64,000 nucleotides of DNA, taken from contig JAWLHY010000010.1 of NCBI GenBank assembly GCA_041690135.1, positions 122,110 to 186,109 on the forward strand, given 5' to 3'. Source of the stretch: Armatimonadota bacterium (GTDB lineage Bacteria > Armatimonadota > SYMT01). The notes beneath the pieces were generated by a model that saw nothing but the letters and a program-made list of their open reading frames with translations, ran no database searches and had not been told where the DNA came from. A program made the position numbers and the translations under genes. Positions 1 to 53,706 of this stretch are shown piece by piece. Numbering within the stretch: the first letter of the stretch is position 1; each line of letters begins with the position of its first letter.

Positions 1-3000
1 CACCCGCTCCGCCAGGGCACGACCCGCCTCCACCCACGTGACGTCGTTGAGCGTGGTGAGGGCGTGCAGCGGGGTGCTGGTGATCGTCAACCGCACCTTA
101 CACGTGTTGCGCACGGAAGCATCGAACATATTCGCGGGCGCGACGGTCCGCCGCCAGAAGGTGTAGAGGCTCCGCCGGAAAAGGTCCGCCCCCTTCGACT
201 GGGGGTAGGTGAAGTCGCGCTCCTTCGTGATCGCGAGGCCGTCCCAGATTCCCTTCGGCTGATATGGGTAGACCGGCTTCCCGCCCATTCGGCGGTCGAG
301 CAGTCCGCTCGAGGCGAGGGCCACGTCCCGCAGCAGCATCGAATGCATGCGATACCGGGCGCCGCGCGCCAGCAGCCGGTTCTCCGGGTCCTTCCGCCGC
401 AGCTCCGGCGTCACTTTGGAGCTCTGCCGGTAGGTAGTGCTGGTGACGATGAGGCGGACCAGGGATTTCATGGACCAGCCAAGGCCTTCGGCGGGGTTGG
501 GGGCCTGCGACTGGGGGCCAGTCCGGAAGGATGAAGGATGAAGGATGAAGGATGACCTCGAACCTCGGGGATTGGAAGCGGCTGCGGTCAACAGCGCTAT
601 GTCCCCCCCGCTCTCCGCACCCTTGCTCCCTTGCGCTGTGGTGAAACTACCCGCACCGGAGAACACGGAGGCGAGGTAGTCCAGGAGCTCGGGGTGAGAC
701 GGTGGGTCGGCCTGGGTGCCGAGGTTTTCGGAGGTTTTGACGAGGCCCTGGCCGAAGAACTGTTGCCAAAAGCGGTTGACCTGCACGCGGGCCGTGAGGG
801 GGTTCTCCGGGCTCACCAGCCACCGGGCCAGGCCGAGGCGGTTCCGGGGGTATTCGGCGGGCATGGGCGGCAACGCGGTGGGGGTGCCGGGCTGCACCTC
901 TTCCCGCGGGGCCTCGTAGTTGCCACGGTCCAGGATGTGCGTCTTCCGAGGACGCGCGTCGGACATGATCATCACGCGTGGAAGGGTCTTCCGGAACTCG
1001 TCCCGCGCCCCTTCGGCAGCCTGCAGCCGGGCGTGCAGCTCTTTCAGGCCGCCCGGCGCTTCCGCAGCGAGAAACGCATCCCGGACCTTCTTCGCATCGG
1101 CGGTGGATCGCTTGTCCGCGGCCGTCTTGAGGGCGGCAAGCAGGTCGTCCGGCAGCTTGTTCTCCAGGACACGGAAATAGAAGCCCGCCGGACCGCCGCC
1201 GTTGGCGATCTTGACCAACAGCCGGTTTTCTCCTGGCACCAGCGACACCGTGACCTTGTCCTGATCCGGCAGCACGCCGCGCGTGATCGGGTTCGCGTGA
1301 ACCTGCGCGCCGTTCAGCCAGACCTTGATACCGTCGTCGCTGCCGAGGGAGAGCGTTACCGTGCGCGGTCCCTCCGCCTGGAGCGTGCGGTAGAGATAGA
1401 AGGCAAAGTTCTCACCGCCGGAGATCTCCTGGAGCTTACCGTCCGCCCATTCGGGACGGGGAGTCCAGCGGAGTTTTCCACCCTCGTAGGCGGCGGAAAG
1501 GTCGACTTTCTTCTCTGGTGCAAATTCGGTCCGGAAGGCCTGCTCGAACCCATCGGCCGGAAAGGGCCCGATGGCACGCCAGGGGTCCAACTTCGGCGCG
1601 GCTCCCACTTCCTTCAGGCGCTGTGCTTCCCACCGGGCCTGGGCGGTCTGCAGTTCGGCCTCGTGCTCGCGCTCGTACTTCTCCGCGGCAGTACGGGCCG
1701 CAGTCGCGGCTGCTTCCAGCGTGTCGAGCCGGGACATCTCCTCGGGGCTGCCCGCGTACATCCAGGGATCCGCGATGCGATACTGACCACCGAAGGGAGG
1801 CGTGCCGGTCTCCGGGACGTTGTTGAAGAACGCCATGAAGGAGTAGTAGTCCTTCTGCGTCAGCGGATCGTACTTGTGATCGTGGCACTGGGCGCAGGCG
1901 AGCGTGGCGCCCAGCCAGTTGGTGGCGGTAACGTCCACCCGGTCGAACAGGATCACATTCCGCTGCTCTTCCGGAATGGCGCCCCCTTCCCCGTTCAGCA
2001 GGTGCAGGCGGTTGAAGCCCGTCGCCAGCTTCTGCTCGAAGGTGGCATTGGGGAGCAGATCGCCCGCCAATTGATAGATGGTGAACCGATCGAACGGCAT
2101 GTCCTGGTTGAGGGCCCCGACGAGCCAGTCCCGCCAGACGTACTGGTAGGTGTCGCCATCCTGCTGGAAGCCGTTGCTGTCCGCGTAACGGGCTGCGTCC
2201 AGCCAGGGCAGGGCCATCCTCTCGCCGTAGTGTGGGCTGGTGAGAAGACGGTCGACGACCTTCTCATAGGCGTCCGGAGAGCGGTCGGCCAGGAAGGCAT
2301 CCACCTCCCGCGGGGTCGGCGGCAGCCCGGTGAGGTCCAGCGTCACGCGACGCAGCAGGGTGGCCCGATCCGCTTCGGGAGACGGGCGGAGGCCTTCCTG
2401 CTCCAGACGTGCCAGAATGAAGGCGTCGATCGGGTTGCGAACCCAGGATTTCTGGCGCGGGGTGGGAACCTTCGGACGACGGACCGGCTCGTAGGCCCAG
2501 TGCCGCGCGGGTCCGCCTTCCGCCCAGACCGCCCCCTGGTCGATCCAGGCGCGCACCTCGCCGATCTTCTCGGGCGAAAGTGGCGCAAAGCCGAGCGGCA
2601 TCCGCGGCTTGCCCCCATGCCCCAGCATGCGCGTCACCAGGAGGCTCTTCGCTCCCTGGCCGGGAACCAGACCGGGACCGCCAACGCCTCCCTTGAGGGC
2701 CAGTTCCCGCGAGTCAAGACGGAGTCCCCCTTGCTGCTGGGAACCGCCGTGGCAATCGAGGCAGTGGGCCTTGAGGATCGGCTGGATATCGCGGGTAAAG
2801 TCGACGTTGGGAGCGGCTTTGGCCCGAGAGGCCGCCTCTCCTTGGGTGGTTCCGCCTGATGCTCGCCTGGCGGGAATCACAGTTTTGCGGTTCGTCTTGG
2901 CAGGGGAGCCCTTCTGGCCTACCGCGGTCGCGGCGGGGATCCCGCAGAGCATGAACACCGCGGCGGAGAGCGCGCCACGTCGATGGCAGCTGAGCAACTT

Positions 3001-3018
3001 CCTCTTCCTCATCAGCAT
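1..3018 (-). CDS. PSCyt1/DUF1549/DUF1553 (Planctomycete cytochrome-c domain) protein, 3' end beyond window
   Basis: Hand translation of minus strand: start MLMRKRKLLSCHRRGALSAAVFMLCG (signal peptide), then DFTRDIQPILKAHCLDCHGG..GGLRLD (PSCyt1 CxxCH motif) near 2700-2800; C-terminal part at 1-840 reads VNRFWQQFFGQGLV..PSHPELLDYLA...GWSMKSLVRLIVTSTTYRQSS...LYTFWRRTVAPANMFDA (DUF1553-like). No in-frame stop from 3018 to 1; not in ORF track because it is incomplete. Confidence 0.8.
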   Translation of the reverse strand, partial: MLMRKRKLLSCHRRGALSAAVFMLCGIPAATAVGQKGSPAKTNRKTVIPARRASGGTTQGEAASRAKAAPNVDFTRDIQPILKAHCLDCHGGSQQQGGLRLDSRELALKGGVGGPGLVPGQGAKSLLVTRMLGHGGKPRMPLGFAPLSPEKIGEVRAWIDQGAVWAEGGPARHWAYEPVRRPKVPTPRQKSWVRNPIDAFILARLEQEGLRPSPEADRATLLRRVTLDLTGLPPTPREVDAFLADRSPDAYEKVVDRLLTSPHYGERMALPWLDAARYADSNGFQQDGDTYQYVWRDWLVGALNQDMPFDRFTIYQLAGDLLPNATFEQKLATGFNRLHLLNGEGGAIPEEQRNVILFDRVDVTATNWLGATLACAQCHDHKYDPLTQKDYYSFMAFFNNVPETGTPPFGGQYRIADPWMYAGSPEEMSRLDTLEAAATAARTAAEKYEREHEAELQTAQARWEAQRLKEVGAAPKLDPWRAIGPFPADGFEQAFRTEFAPEKKVDLSAAYEGGKLRWTPRPEWADGKLQEISGGENFAFYLYRTLQAEGPRTVTLSLGSDDGIKVWLNGAQVHANPITRGVLPDQDKVTVSLVPGENRLLVKIANGGGPAGFYFRVLENKLPDDLLAALKTAADKRSTADAKKVRDAFLAAEAPGGLKELHARLQAAEGARDEFRKTLPRVMIMSDARPRKTHILDRGNYEAPREEVQPGTPTALPPMPAEYPRNRLGLARWLVSPENPLTARVQVNRFWQQFFGQGLVKTSENLGTQADPPSHPELLDYLASVFSGAGSFTTAQGSKGAESGGDIALLTAAASNPRGSRSSFILHPSSFRTGPQSQAPNPAEGLGWSMKSLVRLIVTSTTYRQSSKVTPELRRKDPENRLLARGARYRMHSMLLRDVALASSGLLDRRMGGKPVYPYQPKGIWDGLAITKERDFTYPQSKGADLFRRSLYTFWRRTVAPANMFDASVRNTCKVRLTITSTPLHALTTLNDVTWVEAGRALAERV
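527..554. repeat. Perfect heptanucleotide tandem repeat (AAGGATG)x4 inside the DUF1553 coding region
   Basis: Plus strand 527-554 reads aaggatg four times in direct tandem; a C7 homopolymer lies at 603-609. Confidence 0.9.
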
Positions 3019-3535
3019 GGGGAACCGTCCGCGGTACGGCACCGCGTCTGCGGGTTTTGTTACGCCTGGCCGCCGCTTGTTTCAGGAGATCGTGTGGCAG
3101 GTGGCTACCTGCCATACCTGTCAGGTAGATCCAGTTTGCCCGTCGCCAGATAGGGTTCCTGCTCAAGCCGGTCCTGGCAATCGAACATCCAGGCTTGGTG
3201 TTAGGGTCGCCACCCCCCGAAATCCGGGATGCCTTGCCCCATCGGGTGCCGGTCCTGGTGGATGCCAGACCGGGCAGGTACCGGCTCTCGCAGACCGTGT
3301 ACCTGGAGATTTCCGGCGCGCGGTCTCCGGAAGGCGGGTTCTCGACGCCCGCACCTACGACCGACGGATTTCACCCCCGCCATACGCTCACCAGTGGGGA
3401 GTTGCGATTGGAGATTGCAGTGGGTCGGCGATAAGCGCTCCCAGAGCGCCGGTGGCGGAGAGACGCAGGGTTCATACGCACGACTGTAACCCGATGGCAC
3501 ACGCGGGCATCTACACGATGGAAGGAGCACACCCA

Positions 3536-27273: not shown

Positions 27274-28143
27274 ATGAGCCTCGACGCGTCCTCCACCGTT
27301 CTAACGTCCGAAGAGATCGACCACTTCTTGCGGTTCGGCTATGTCGTCCTGCACGATTGCTTCCCCCGCGCCCTCGCCGAAGAGTGGACCGCCGCGGCCA
27401 TGGAACGCCTGGGATACGACGCCATGGACCCCGCTACCTGGAAGCTATCGCGAGTCCATCTCCCCAGCGTGCGGACGATGGGTTTCCGCACCTTCGCCCC
27501 GCGCGCATGGCAGGCCGCCTGCGAACTGGTGGGCGGCGAGGAACGGGTGCGGCAGCCCTGCACCGTGAGCGACGGGTTCATCATCAATTTCCGGATCGGA
27601 GGCGGCCGTAAGTGGAAACCGCCCGCGCCGGACGCGGCGGCCTGGCACCTGGACGGCGACTACTTCCGGCATTTCCTGGACAGTCCGGAACAAGGCCTGC
27701 TCACCCTGATGCTCTGGTCGGATATTGGCCCGCAAATGGGCGGCACCTTCCTGGCCCGCGACTCCGTGGCGGTAGTCGCCCGCTACCTGGCAGAGCACCC
27801 TGAGGGTGTGCGACCGGCACGCCTCGAGACCCGCCGTTTGATGCAGGAATGCCGCGACTTTGTGGAGGTCACCGGCCGGGTGGGCGACGTGCTGCTGATG
27901 CACCCGCTGATGCTTCACGCCGCGTCGCCGAACCCGTCGGGCAAGCCGCGGTTCCTGACGAACCCGCCACTCGCGCTCAAGAAGCCGCTACAGTTTCGGC
28001 GTGTACGAACTAGCTACTCTCCGGTGGAGCAGGCGGTGCTGCTAGGATTGGGGGCTTCCGAGTACGCGTTTGCTCCTACGGCGCCACGGCAGCGGATCAC
28101 CCCGGCGCGAGTGCGGAACCAGCGCAAAATGGGAGTGGGATAA
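27274..28143 (+). CDS. Phytanoyl-CoA dioxygenase (PhyH) family protein
   Basis: LTSEEIDHFLRFGYVVLHDCF N-terminal signature and WHLDGDY iron-binding-like motif. Confidence 0.8.
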   Translation: MSLDASSTVLTSEEIDHFLRFGYVVLHDCFPRALAEEWTAAAMERLGYDAMDPATWKLSRVHLPSVRTMGFRTFAPRAWQAACELVGGEERVRQPCTVSDGFIINFRIGGGRKWKPPAPDAAAWHLDGDYFRHFLDSPEQGLLTLMLWSDIGPQMGGTFLARDSVAVVARYLAEHPEGVRPARLETRRLMQECRDFVEVTGRVGDVLLMHPLMLHAASPNPSGKPRFLTNPPLALKKPLQFRRVRTSYSPVEQAVLLGLGASEYAFAPTAPRQRITPARVRNQRKMGVG

Positions 28144-28216
28144 GGAAGTCAAGATAAGGACAAGGAGGGTTGATAAGGAGGGTGGATAAGGATCAGGTTG
28201 AGGATGAGGAAAATGG
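28139..28216 (+). repeat. GGA-rich direct-repeat array (4x GATAAGGA plus GAGGATGAGGA)
   Basis: GATAAGGA at 28139-28146, 28153-28160, 28172-28179 and 28185-28192; eight GGA triplets within about 75 nt starting at the PhyH stop codon. Confidence 0.8.
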
Positions 28217-28234
28217 TACCGAGATGGGAGCAGA

Positions 28235-28270
28235 GTGATGTGGGCGCGATAAAGCAAGGCCCCACATCAC
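28235..28270. terminator. Stem-loop (10-bp stem gtgatgtggg / cccacatcac, 16-nt loop) between convergent genes
   Basis: Exact reverse-complement arms at 28235-28244 and 28261-28270; weak T run follows on plus strand. Confidence 0.45.
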
Positions 28271-28309
28271 CCTTTCGCAAACACAGCTTCCATGGGAGAC
28301 TTGGGCAGA

Positions 28310-52617: not shown

Positions 52618-53706
52618 ATGGCGACTATCAACTTCGGCAAATATGAGCTGACCCGGGAACTCGGCCGCGGAGCCATGGGGATCGTGTACGAGGCGCACGA
52701 GATTGGGCGGGGCGGAGAACTCGCGCTCAAGGTCATTACGATCAAGAACGGCGCTTCCCCGGAATCTCGGGCGCGGCAGCTGGAGCGATTCTCACGCGAG
52801 GCACGCGCCCTGTCTCAACTGAACCATCCCAACGTGGTGCGGTTGTTCGAGCGGGGTGAGATCGGTGGCCGTGCTTATTTCACCATGGAACTGGTGCGCG
52901 GAACCACGCTCCGCGATCGGCTCCAGTTCCAGGGCGCTCTTTCCTTACCGGAACTGACGCGGCTGGCATTGGAAATGTGTGCGGCACTGGACCACCTCCA
53001 CGAGCATGGGGTGGTACACCGCGACGTGAAGCCGGACAACATCATGCTGATGCCGGACGGCAGTTCCAAGCTGATGGATTTCGGAATCGCCCTGCTGCTG
53101 TTCGAGGATAGTCAGGGAGCGAGTGGTTTTGAGGGCTCACCGGCCTACATGTCGCCCGAGCAGGTGGCCTCACGCCCGGTAGATGGACGCACAGACATCT
53201 ATTCCCTGGCAGTGACGCTCTACGAAGCCGCCACGGGAAAACGCGCATACGACGGGGACAGCATCGCGACCATCACCCAGAAGGTCGTTCAGGAATACCC
53301 CGCTCCCCCGCCCGGTATGCCGCTCCACTTCCAGGCGATCCTGATGCGGGCGATGGGAAAGAATCCGAATCACCGGTATCAACATGCCACGGAGATGGCT
53401 GCGGACCTGCGCGCCGCGCGGCTACCCCAGCGCCCTTCGGTAACTTCGCTCCCGGCCGCCCCGCCCAACCCAGGAACATTCCCGAACGTGGCGCCTCTGT
53501 CGGCTCAACCTTCTGGCACCCCGCCACACGCGACGACGCCCCCCCATCGCGCCGCGGCTCCTGGCATAGCCTGCCGGATCCACCCCGGCCGCGCGGGTGT
53601 GGCCCACTGCGAAGCTTGCGGCCATCCGATGTGCTACACGTGCATGCTGGAAATTCCACACCGGGGAACGATCTGTCGCACGTGCGCTTTCGGCCCCCGC
53701 CTTTGA
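52618..53706 (+). CDS. Hanks-type Ser/Thr protein kinase with C-terminal Cys-rich zinc-ribbon-like tail
   Basis: GRGAMGIVY glycine loop, ALK lysine, HRDVKPDNIM catalytic loop, DFG, SPE; tail C..CEACGHPMCYTCMLE..CRTC. Confidence 0.85.
   Translation: MATINFGKYELTRELGRGAMGIVYEAHEIGRGGELALKVITIKNGASPESRARQLERFSREARALSQLNHPNVVRLFERGEIGGRAYFTMELVRGTTLRDRLQFQGALSLPELTRLALEMCAALDHLHEHGVVHRDVKPDNIMLMPDGSSKLMDFGIALLLFEDSQGASGFEGSPAYMSPEQVASRPVDGRTDIYSLAVTLYEAATGKRAYDGDSIATITQKVVQEYPAPPPGMPLHFQAILMRAMGKNPNHRYQHATEMAADLRAARLPQRPSVTSLPAAPPNPGTFPNVAPLSAQPSGTPPHATTPPHRAAAPGIACRIHPGRAGVAHCEACGHPMCYTCMLEIPHRGTICRTCAFGPRL

Follow-up and report, generated by a model that had tools for sequence, protein, structure and literature searches.

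How does a conserved bacterial domain come to hold 60 residues that most of its relatives do without, and is such an addition of any use to the protein? The question is raised by a PSCyt1-PSCyt2-PSD1 (DUF1549/DUF1553) gene at the left edge of a 64,000-nucleotide stretch of an Armatimonadota bacterium genome (assembly GCA_041690135.1, contig JAWLHY010000010.1, positions 122,110 to 186,109; the whole stretch is called the window here), in which the PSD1 domain is split by a segment at positions 481-660 that contains a tandem array of the heptamer AAGGATG. An earlier note, made from the letters of the DNA, had taken the segment for extra in-frame sequence and had proposed that it was phase-variable or recently acquired. 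Here, we favour the reading, at a probability of roughly 0.62, that the segment is a tolerated, lineage-specific in-frame loop expansion which arose from short tandem repeats with units of 7-8 nt and consists of non-coding-like DNA, at a permissive helix-turn-helix connection of PSD1.

An additional in-frame segment splits PSD1

The translated gene matches all three Pfam profiles well above their gathering cut-offs, in the domain order PSCyt1 (E-value 2.2e-12, 47.9 bits against 22), PSCyt2 (2.2e-86, 289.5 bits against 29.8) and PSD1 (3.3e-76, 256.3 bits against 28.5), which places the protein in this family. The PSD1 match is broken into two stretches on either side of 481-660 (Table 1), and alignment both to DUF1553/PSD1 homologues and to the Pfam profile, the check that the earlier note had proposed, confirms an insertion between profile positions 61 and 65. 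The conserved LLDxL and TYRQ motifs, usually 22 residues apart, are separated by 79 residues in the window protein, 60 residues having taken the place of three for a net gain of 57 (171 nt), and the segment is divisible by three in length and free of stops in frame. It corresponds to a gap in 23 of 25 aligned homologues, and the closest relatives lack it. A database search with the C-terminal 300 residues of the window protein as query gave a similar picture, the spacing being measurable in 102 of the 120 best homologues and 22 residues in 97 of those; the homologues P0013 and P0027 each have a spacing of 49 residues, with inserts unrelated in sequence.

The DNA of the segment looks non-coding. 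GC (guanine plus cytosine) fractions at codon positions 1, 2 and 3 are 0.57, 0.67 and 0.68 in the segment against 0.68, 0.49 and 0.83 in the rest of the gene, and the genome's coding signature, looked for in all frames of the segment, was found in none. A search of 5.8 billion proteins found no homologue of the peptide, which matched no family in Pfam either. An intein was considered and rejected, the 60 residues having no Pfam match (the Hint domain is absent) and being far below the length of any intein. A structured RNA element was likewise set aside, since matches to Rfam were at chance level (E above 4) and the predicted RNA fold was no more stable than those of shuffled sequences (z-score 0.33). 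Neither promoter-like nor terminator-like sites were found inside the segment, the best inverted repeat in it is 7 bp long and not significant (P = 0.73), and there is no second copy of it within the window. The junctions show what may be a short direct repeat (TTCTCCGG and TTCCGG); the idea that this was a target-site duplication was set aside, the match being inexact.

In a structural model of the window protein (truncated; overall predicted local distance difference test (pLDDT) score 51) the segment is coil and carries the lowest confidence. As this model is poor, the insert-free homologue P0001 was modelled with a deeper alignment (pLDDT 76), and here the site is a four-residue coil between helices 92-104 and 109-117 with a local pLDDT of ~87. 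A search for a solved structure of a PSD1 domain found none.

Table 1. Positions in the window, and loci elsewhere, of the features discussed in the text. Positions without a locus prefix are window coordinates.
Feature	Position or locus	Strand	Remarks
PSCyt1-PSCyt2-PSD1 (DUF1549/DUF1553) gene	1..3024	-	Start MLMRKRK... at ~3024; C-terminus beyond left window edge; from translation and Pfam
PSD1 part one (profile positions 1-61)	661..843	-	Ends in helix ...HPELLDYLASVF; Pfam match
Extra 60-residue segment SGAGSF...PAEGL	481..660	-	Stands in for the three-residue turn RES of most relatives; between PSD1 positions 61 and 65
PSD1 part two (profile positions 65-213)	1..480	-	Begins GWSMKSLVRLIVTSTTYRQSS; Pfam match
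Perfect heptamer array (GAAGGAT)x4.3	526..555	+	Tandem Repeats Finder: period 7, 100% matches
Second heptamer ACCTCGR, two copies (ACCTCGA, ACCTCGG)	555..568	+	Adjoins main array; read from sequence
C7 homopolymer (G7 on coding strand)	603..609	+	Within GCAAGGGAGCAAGGGTGCGGAGAGCGGGGGGG stretch of ~8-nt period
Insert of relative, unit (CCCCAAC)n	L123		At PSD1 turn
Insert of relative, unit (CACCCTC)n	L156		At PSD1 turn
Insert of relative, unit (GCAATCS)n	L148		At PSD1 turn
Insert of relative, 8-nt unit	L159		At PSD1 turn
Insert of relative, 9-nt unit	L191		At PSD1 turn
Insert of relative, inverted arrays	L140		(GGCCAAG)n then (CTTGGCC)n, at PSD1 turn
In-frame SSFILHPSS arrays	L012:4423-7260; L035:2947-4101; L073:2540-4075; L074:6091-7998; L077:2969-6043; L096:2909-3991; L038:3442-5223		Loci in different phyla
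Viral contigs with varying array length	L207 vs L229; L222 vs L230, L263, L268		16 vs 18 and 5 vs 6 copies

The PSD1 turn is a site of recurrent expansion

A scan of metagenome contigs provided further relatives, and the LLDxL-TYRQ spacing, measurable in 59 of them, is 22 residues in 40 and longer by 1 to 57 residues in 19. When inserts of at least five residues are counted across 62 sequences and 246 core columns, they occur in 19 sequences at the turn and in 6 at all other sites combined; no other site of PSD1 comes near the turn as a place for indels. With 19 of the 59 relatives bearing inserts at this same site, the segment is no isolated occurrence and belongs to a recurrent kind of loop expansion. 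The earlier note had held that the two motifs are normally a few residues apart, which is true of most relatives and untrue of those 19, and had named a linker of similar length in homologues generally as what would refute its idea; this is half the case, since most relatives are short at the turn and yet many, though fewer, have other inserts precisely there.

Many of these inserts are themselves repeats (Table 1). Autocorrelation at lag 7 reaches at least 0.40 in six of 13 inserts, the window's included, as against 2.1% of control segments of equal length taken out of the same loci (binomial P ~1e-7). The inserts of L140, L170 and L177 are palindromic, with arms of 26-32 nt (P < 0.003), and those of L170 and L177 are near-perfect palindromes (arms 30-32 nt) lying in frame at the turn. 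P0027 has a tandem FMSPSPxGGEGSGVR / SPSPxGGEGSGVR insert at the turn, which resembles a translated palindromic repeat.

The closest relative, L123, with ~81% nucleotide identity in this region, has a shorter and different insert. Its alignment with that of the window scores above shuffles (z 3.3-3.9), a weak resemblance, and the 11-nt CCCCCAACCCC beside the 3' junction is common to both inserts, which together are a tentative sign of stepwise growth with (CATCCTT)4 as the newest layer. The inserts of the other relatives have no similarity to the window's or to that of L123.

Selection might instead have retained the segment as a new surface loop of adaptive value, such as a flexible linker or a binding epitope. 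In favour of this, the frame is held over 180 nt, for which we estimate a chance of ~7% (1/3 for the length and ~0.2 for freedom from stops). A longer loop is moreover conserved in some subfamilies, for example the QTPTxRT... group formed by L185, L189, L197, L191 and L177. The segment has, however, neither a homologue nor a coding composition, it is predicted to be disordered, and the inserts are non-homologous between lineages, so that selection for such a loop seems quite improbable.

The metagenome contig of one relative (L139:1-20; proteins 85% identical over the best aligned segment, ~78% nucleotide identity) ends exactly at the turn, starting ...SGWNVK, possibly because the assembly broke at a repeat insert. 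Repeats can break assemblies, and an assembly or sequencing artefact, or else a decaying pseudogene, might thus be proposed for the window as well. This we find scarcely credible: the same conserved domain continues from one flank into the other, the insert keeps the frame and brings no stop into a 1008-residue reading frame that is otherwise intact and scores strongly in Pfam, a single sequencing read is longer than the 30-nt array, and similar inserts arise independently in many assemblies.

Repeats inside the segment

The earlier note reported (AAGGATG)x4 at 527-554, which is exact, and a C7 run at 603-609, which is likewise present. On the coding strand the array reads (CATCCTT)n and is translated as SSFILHPSSF; a 21-nt version of it occurs nowhere else in the window and in none of 100 shuffles. 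Together with the adjoining ACCTCGR copies it forms a composite heptamer array of a kind also seen in L073 and L074. On the plus strand the AAGGATG array has TGA in all three frames, while on the coding strand no frame is stopped and the translation is HPSSFIL. Since the forward unit stops every frame and the reverse unit none, such an array can survive inside genes only in the CATCCTT orientation, as here. The array is perfect (100%), which points to a recent origin.

The array has no inverted partner, the best candidate matching at 10 of 14 positions, and the segment no significant inverted repeat, so a hairpin-type element in the window was rejected. Runs of C or G of at least seven bases number two in the window (603-609 and 53539-53545) against ~31 expected from base composition, which makes the C7 at 603-609 atypical for this genome. 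Homopolymers of this kind are strongly avoided in the genome, and one of the two lies inside the segment. Elsewhere in the window, at 28140-28275, just past an open reading frame at 27274-28143, a purine-rich run in which Tandem Repeats Finder reports periods of 13 and 6, made up of degenerate repeats of GATAAGGA and of GGATGA type, precedes a hairpin, GTGATGTGGG...CCCACATCAC; it is an intergenic relative of the AAGGA-rich motif of the segment.

The AAGGATG heptamer across genomes

A scan for (AAGGATG)3 in one genome per species yielded at least 120 loci (L001-L120) with 135 arrays. The loci listed belong to Planctomycetota, Chloroflexota, Acidobacteriota, Cyanobacteria, Armatimonadota, Verrucomicrobiota, Bacteroidota, Betaproteobacteria and others, and include cultured isolates. 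In viral contigs, arrays of at least three copies are present in 93 stretches (L203-L295), as against 5, 11 and 20 for three composition-matched permutations of the unit, which is thus 5 to 19 times commoner than these, and 31 for AAGGGTG. The period itself also stands out, the genome loci listed containing 54 perfect heptamer arrays (the selected one excluded) against 3 of hexamers and 12 of octamers.

Among the 135 arrays listed, 80 lie in forward orientation at the end of a long open reading frame or no more than 40 nt past it (control 7.6%), and 52 have an inverted partner, in every case in the order 5'-(AAGGATG)n-loop-(CATCCTT)n-3' and in none the opposite, with loops mostly of 6-100 nt (for example L033:4005-4085, L066:3701-3774, L103, L083 and L119). 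These hairpins may be terminator-like or resemble repetitive extragenic palindromic (REP) sequences; no Rfam family covers them. A limited literature search found neither the strict hairpin polarity nor the repeated colonisation of one protein loop described.

Arrays in the open orientation, translated as SSFILHPSS, are found in frame inside the Pfam domains of PriA, TsaD, EPSP synthase, squalene-hopene cyclase, UvrD, an ABC permease and a short-chain dehydrogenase (Table 1), and several of them have a forward KDEGGRMKDE arm or a second heptamer array alongside. Inteins are present in a ribonucleotide reductase (L008:1309-6216) and in the UvrD helicase of L077:2969-6043, and in L008 the heptamer array is located within the intein, near the LAGLIDADG region. 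In RNA, we take AAGGAUG to be like a CsrA-binding repeat and the consensus (A/C)AGGAUG from systematic evolution of ligands by exponential enrichment (SELEX); forward (AAGGATG)n in transcripts could then presumably act as multivalent protein-binding sites, of which the window gene would have the antisense strand.

It is tempting to see in (AAGGATG)n a class of undescribed, sequence-specific heptamer elements that cross phyla, typically form hairpins at the 3' ends of genes, also occur in phage contigs, owe their spread or their generation to a dedicated mechanism and repeatedly colonise coding DNA in the open orientation, the PSD1 turn being a site preferred for landing or growth and the window insert a recent colonisation. 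We put this forward tentatively, as a possibility on which we would not rely.

A related proposal, which we consider unlikely, is that the segment is a small mobile or selfish repeat element transposed in frame, similar to a miniature inverted-repeat transposable element (MITE), a REP sequence or a Rickettsia palindromic element (RPE). The same turn hosts the palindromic inserts of L140, L170 and L177 and the tandem insert of P0027; the AAGGATG excess in viral contigs and the 52 hairpin-forming arrays fit as well, and palindromic elements inserted in frame are documented in Rickettsia (PMC10969869). The window insert does lie at a fold-compatible in-frame site, 180 nt free of stops at a turn between modelled helices, but it lacks a palindrome and terminal inverted repeats: neither the segment nor the array within it has a significant inverted counterpart, inspection of the junctions revealed no clear terminal repeats or target-site duplication, no second copy is present in 64 kb, and in a comparison of the segment and its flanks with the 120 array-bearing loci listed the heptamer alone matched, the flanks being unlike.

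Phase variation

A 7-nt unit is not a multiple of three, so a contingency switch that turns the protein off and on by slippage of the heptamer or of the C7 run is possible on paper. A change of one or two array units would bring a stop 26 to 154 residues on, with most of PSD1 lost, and a change of three would keep the frame; in the G7 run, one base fewer leads straight to a stop and one base more shifts the frame. The array is perfect, and longer AAGGATG arrays do vary in copy number between viral contigs compared on identical 120-nt flanks (Table 1). The viral arrays can be regarded as a rough natural calibration of AAGGATG slippage against tract length.

The frame-shifting unit thus stands within the reading frame, but the tract has only 4.3 units and the homopolymer seven bases. 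In well-studied contingency loci the tracts are longer than this. By the indirect measure of the viral contigs the tract would be too short to mutate often, as all ten groups with identical flanks and arrays of three or four copies are invariant. The comparison of repeat copy number in metagenome data, which the earlier note had advised, gave no support, a pattern search of metagenome contigs for alleles of the window locus with 2 to 6 units having found none. Relatives have degenerate arrays at the turn or none at all; the gene is one of a large family of paralogues, and its lineage is free-living, so that on/off variation would answer no obvious need. A phase switch is unlikely, and we would give it very little weight; of the two alternatives in the earlier note, recent origin agrees with the perfect array, and phase variation is opposed by the four units, the invariance of short arrays and the failure to find an allele. 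The heptanucleotide repeats of Haemophilus influenzae HMW1A (PMC8262952, PMC12721329) are comparable in that a repeat that is not a multiple of three is situated in or near the gene of an exported protein. They differ in that their tracts are long and vary within and between strains, while here there are four units in a free-living planctomycete-type genome and no variation was observed in the allele search of metagenome contigs.

Comparison with known repeat systems

AAGGATG as a tandem was not found in the searchable literature. The manner of the insertion fits both RPE-like in-frame insertion and bacterial heptanucleotide repeats, without the palindrome of the former or the intergenic location of the latter. 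With the Rickettsia palindromic elements and MITE-like repeats (PMC10969869) it shares ~100-200 nt of repeat DNA placed in frame, compatible with the fold and encoding a peptide without known function. Unlike the Rickettsia elements (PMC10969869), the window insert is not palindromic, has no detectable copy family and no conserved peptide, and its repeat is a tandem heptamer instead of a dispersed one.

Over-represented heptanucleotide repeats in bacteria are attributed to Mrazek et al. 2007 in two later papers (PMC4692102, PMC4679880), and, as far as these citing papers go, this excess of 7-nt units, on record since 2007, still lacks an explanation. Units such as TAACTGA (Beggiatoaceae, Cyanobacteria, Bacteroidetes) and GGGAATC (Xanthomonas) are shared by distant lineages and located mostly near gene ends (PMC4679880, PMC4692102), and the short tandemly repeated repetitive (STRR) sequences of Calothrix are another example of bacterial heptanucleotide repeats; the reverse reading of TAACTGA is translated as LSVISYQ repeats (PMC4679880), and inverted pairs of heptamer repeats occur (PMC4692102). 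AAGGATG resembles these in its 3 to ~18 copies, its cross-phylum unit, its mostly intergenic position, its stops in the forward direction and its translatable reverse (HPSSFIL). The array of the window, tandem beyond chance, departs from them in that it is inside a conserved domain and not between genes, near gene ends.

A proposed model for tolerated loop expansion

Our preferred reading, the tolerated expansion of a permissive turn, would work as follows. Repeat DNA would arise or land all over these genomes, whether polymerase slippage generates it or common intergenic repeats serve as templates for its insertion, and its retention within a gene would need three things, a length divisible by three, an open frame and a fold that tolerates a disordered surface loop. 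For AAGGATG this filter should pass only the CATCCTT orientation, the one seen in the window. The segment probably grew stepwise, part of it being perhaps common to the L123 insert and the perfect (CATCCTT)4 having been added later. It most likely has no dedicated function, and the array may make the gene somewhat likelier to suffer loss by frameshift.

Several points weigh against this reading. No relative above ~81% nucleotide identity was found, which leaves nothing closer from which to trace when and how the insert was acquired, and neither the window nor the 120 array-bearing loci listed nor the protein database yielded a source for those parts of the insert that are not repeats. Low codon periodicity would also be expected from an old disordered loop rich in Ser, Gly, Ala and Pro under relaxed selection. 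Part of the likeness to L123 comes from low-complexity, C-rich sequence, and such sequence is lost in mononucleotide shuffles. The lack of function is something we only infer, and the acceptance of inserts by this turn alone could be due to fold tolerance or to a DNA property of the site.

Genomic setting and implications

In other respects the window protein is an ordinary member of its family. Its N-terminus is signal-peptide-like and its haem motif is CLDCH; with the PSCyt1-PSCyt2-PSD1 proteins of Planctomycetota and Verrucomicrobiota it shares the full domain order and the CxxCH haem motif, with 66-81% identity to metagenomic members, and is unlike them in the lengthened turn alone. Among its neighbours are a second PSCyt/PSD protein and DUF1552, FG-GAP, WD40 and ankyrin proteins, a set typical of Planctomycetota.

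For this gene the matter is small, the segment adding a disordered loop to a protein whose family function is unknown, and the class of AAGGATG repeats is a more interesting lead than the segment itself. Its traits provide material for testing polymerase slippage, mobile DNA and selection for a role at the RNA level as mechanisms. For annotation, caution is warranted, as peptides of the SSFILHPSSF type in conserved proteins are translated repeats and not domains. If the tentative view of AAGGATG as a class of colonising elements were true, heptamer repeats would be actively supplying Planctomycetota, Chloroflexota, Acidobacteriota and Cyanobacteria with new protein loops. In the PSD1 family, the many independent heptamer-derived or palindromic insertions in one turn of a widespread domain amount to a natural assay of how repeats become protein loops.

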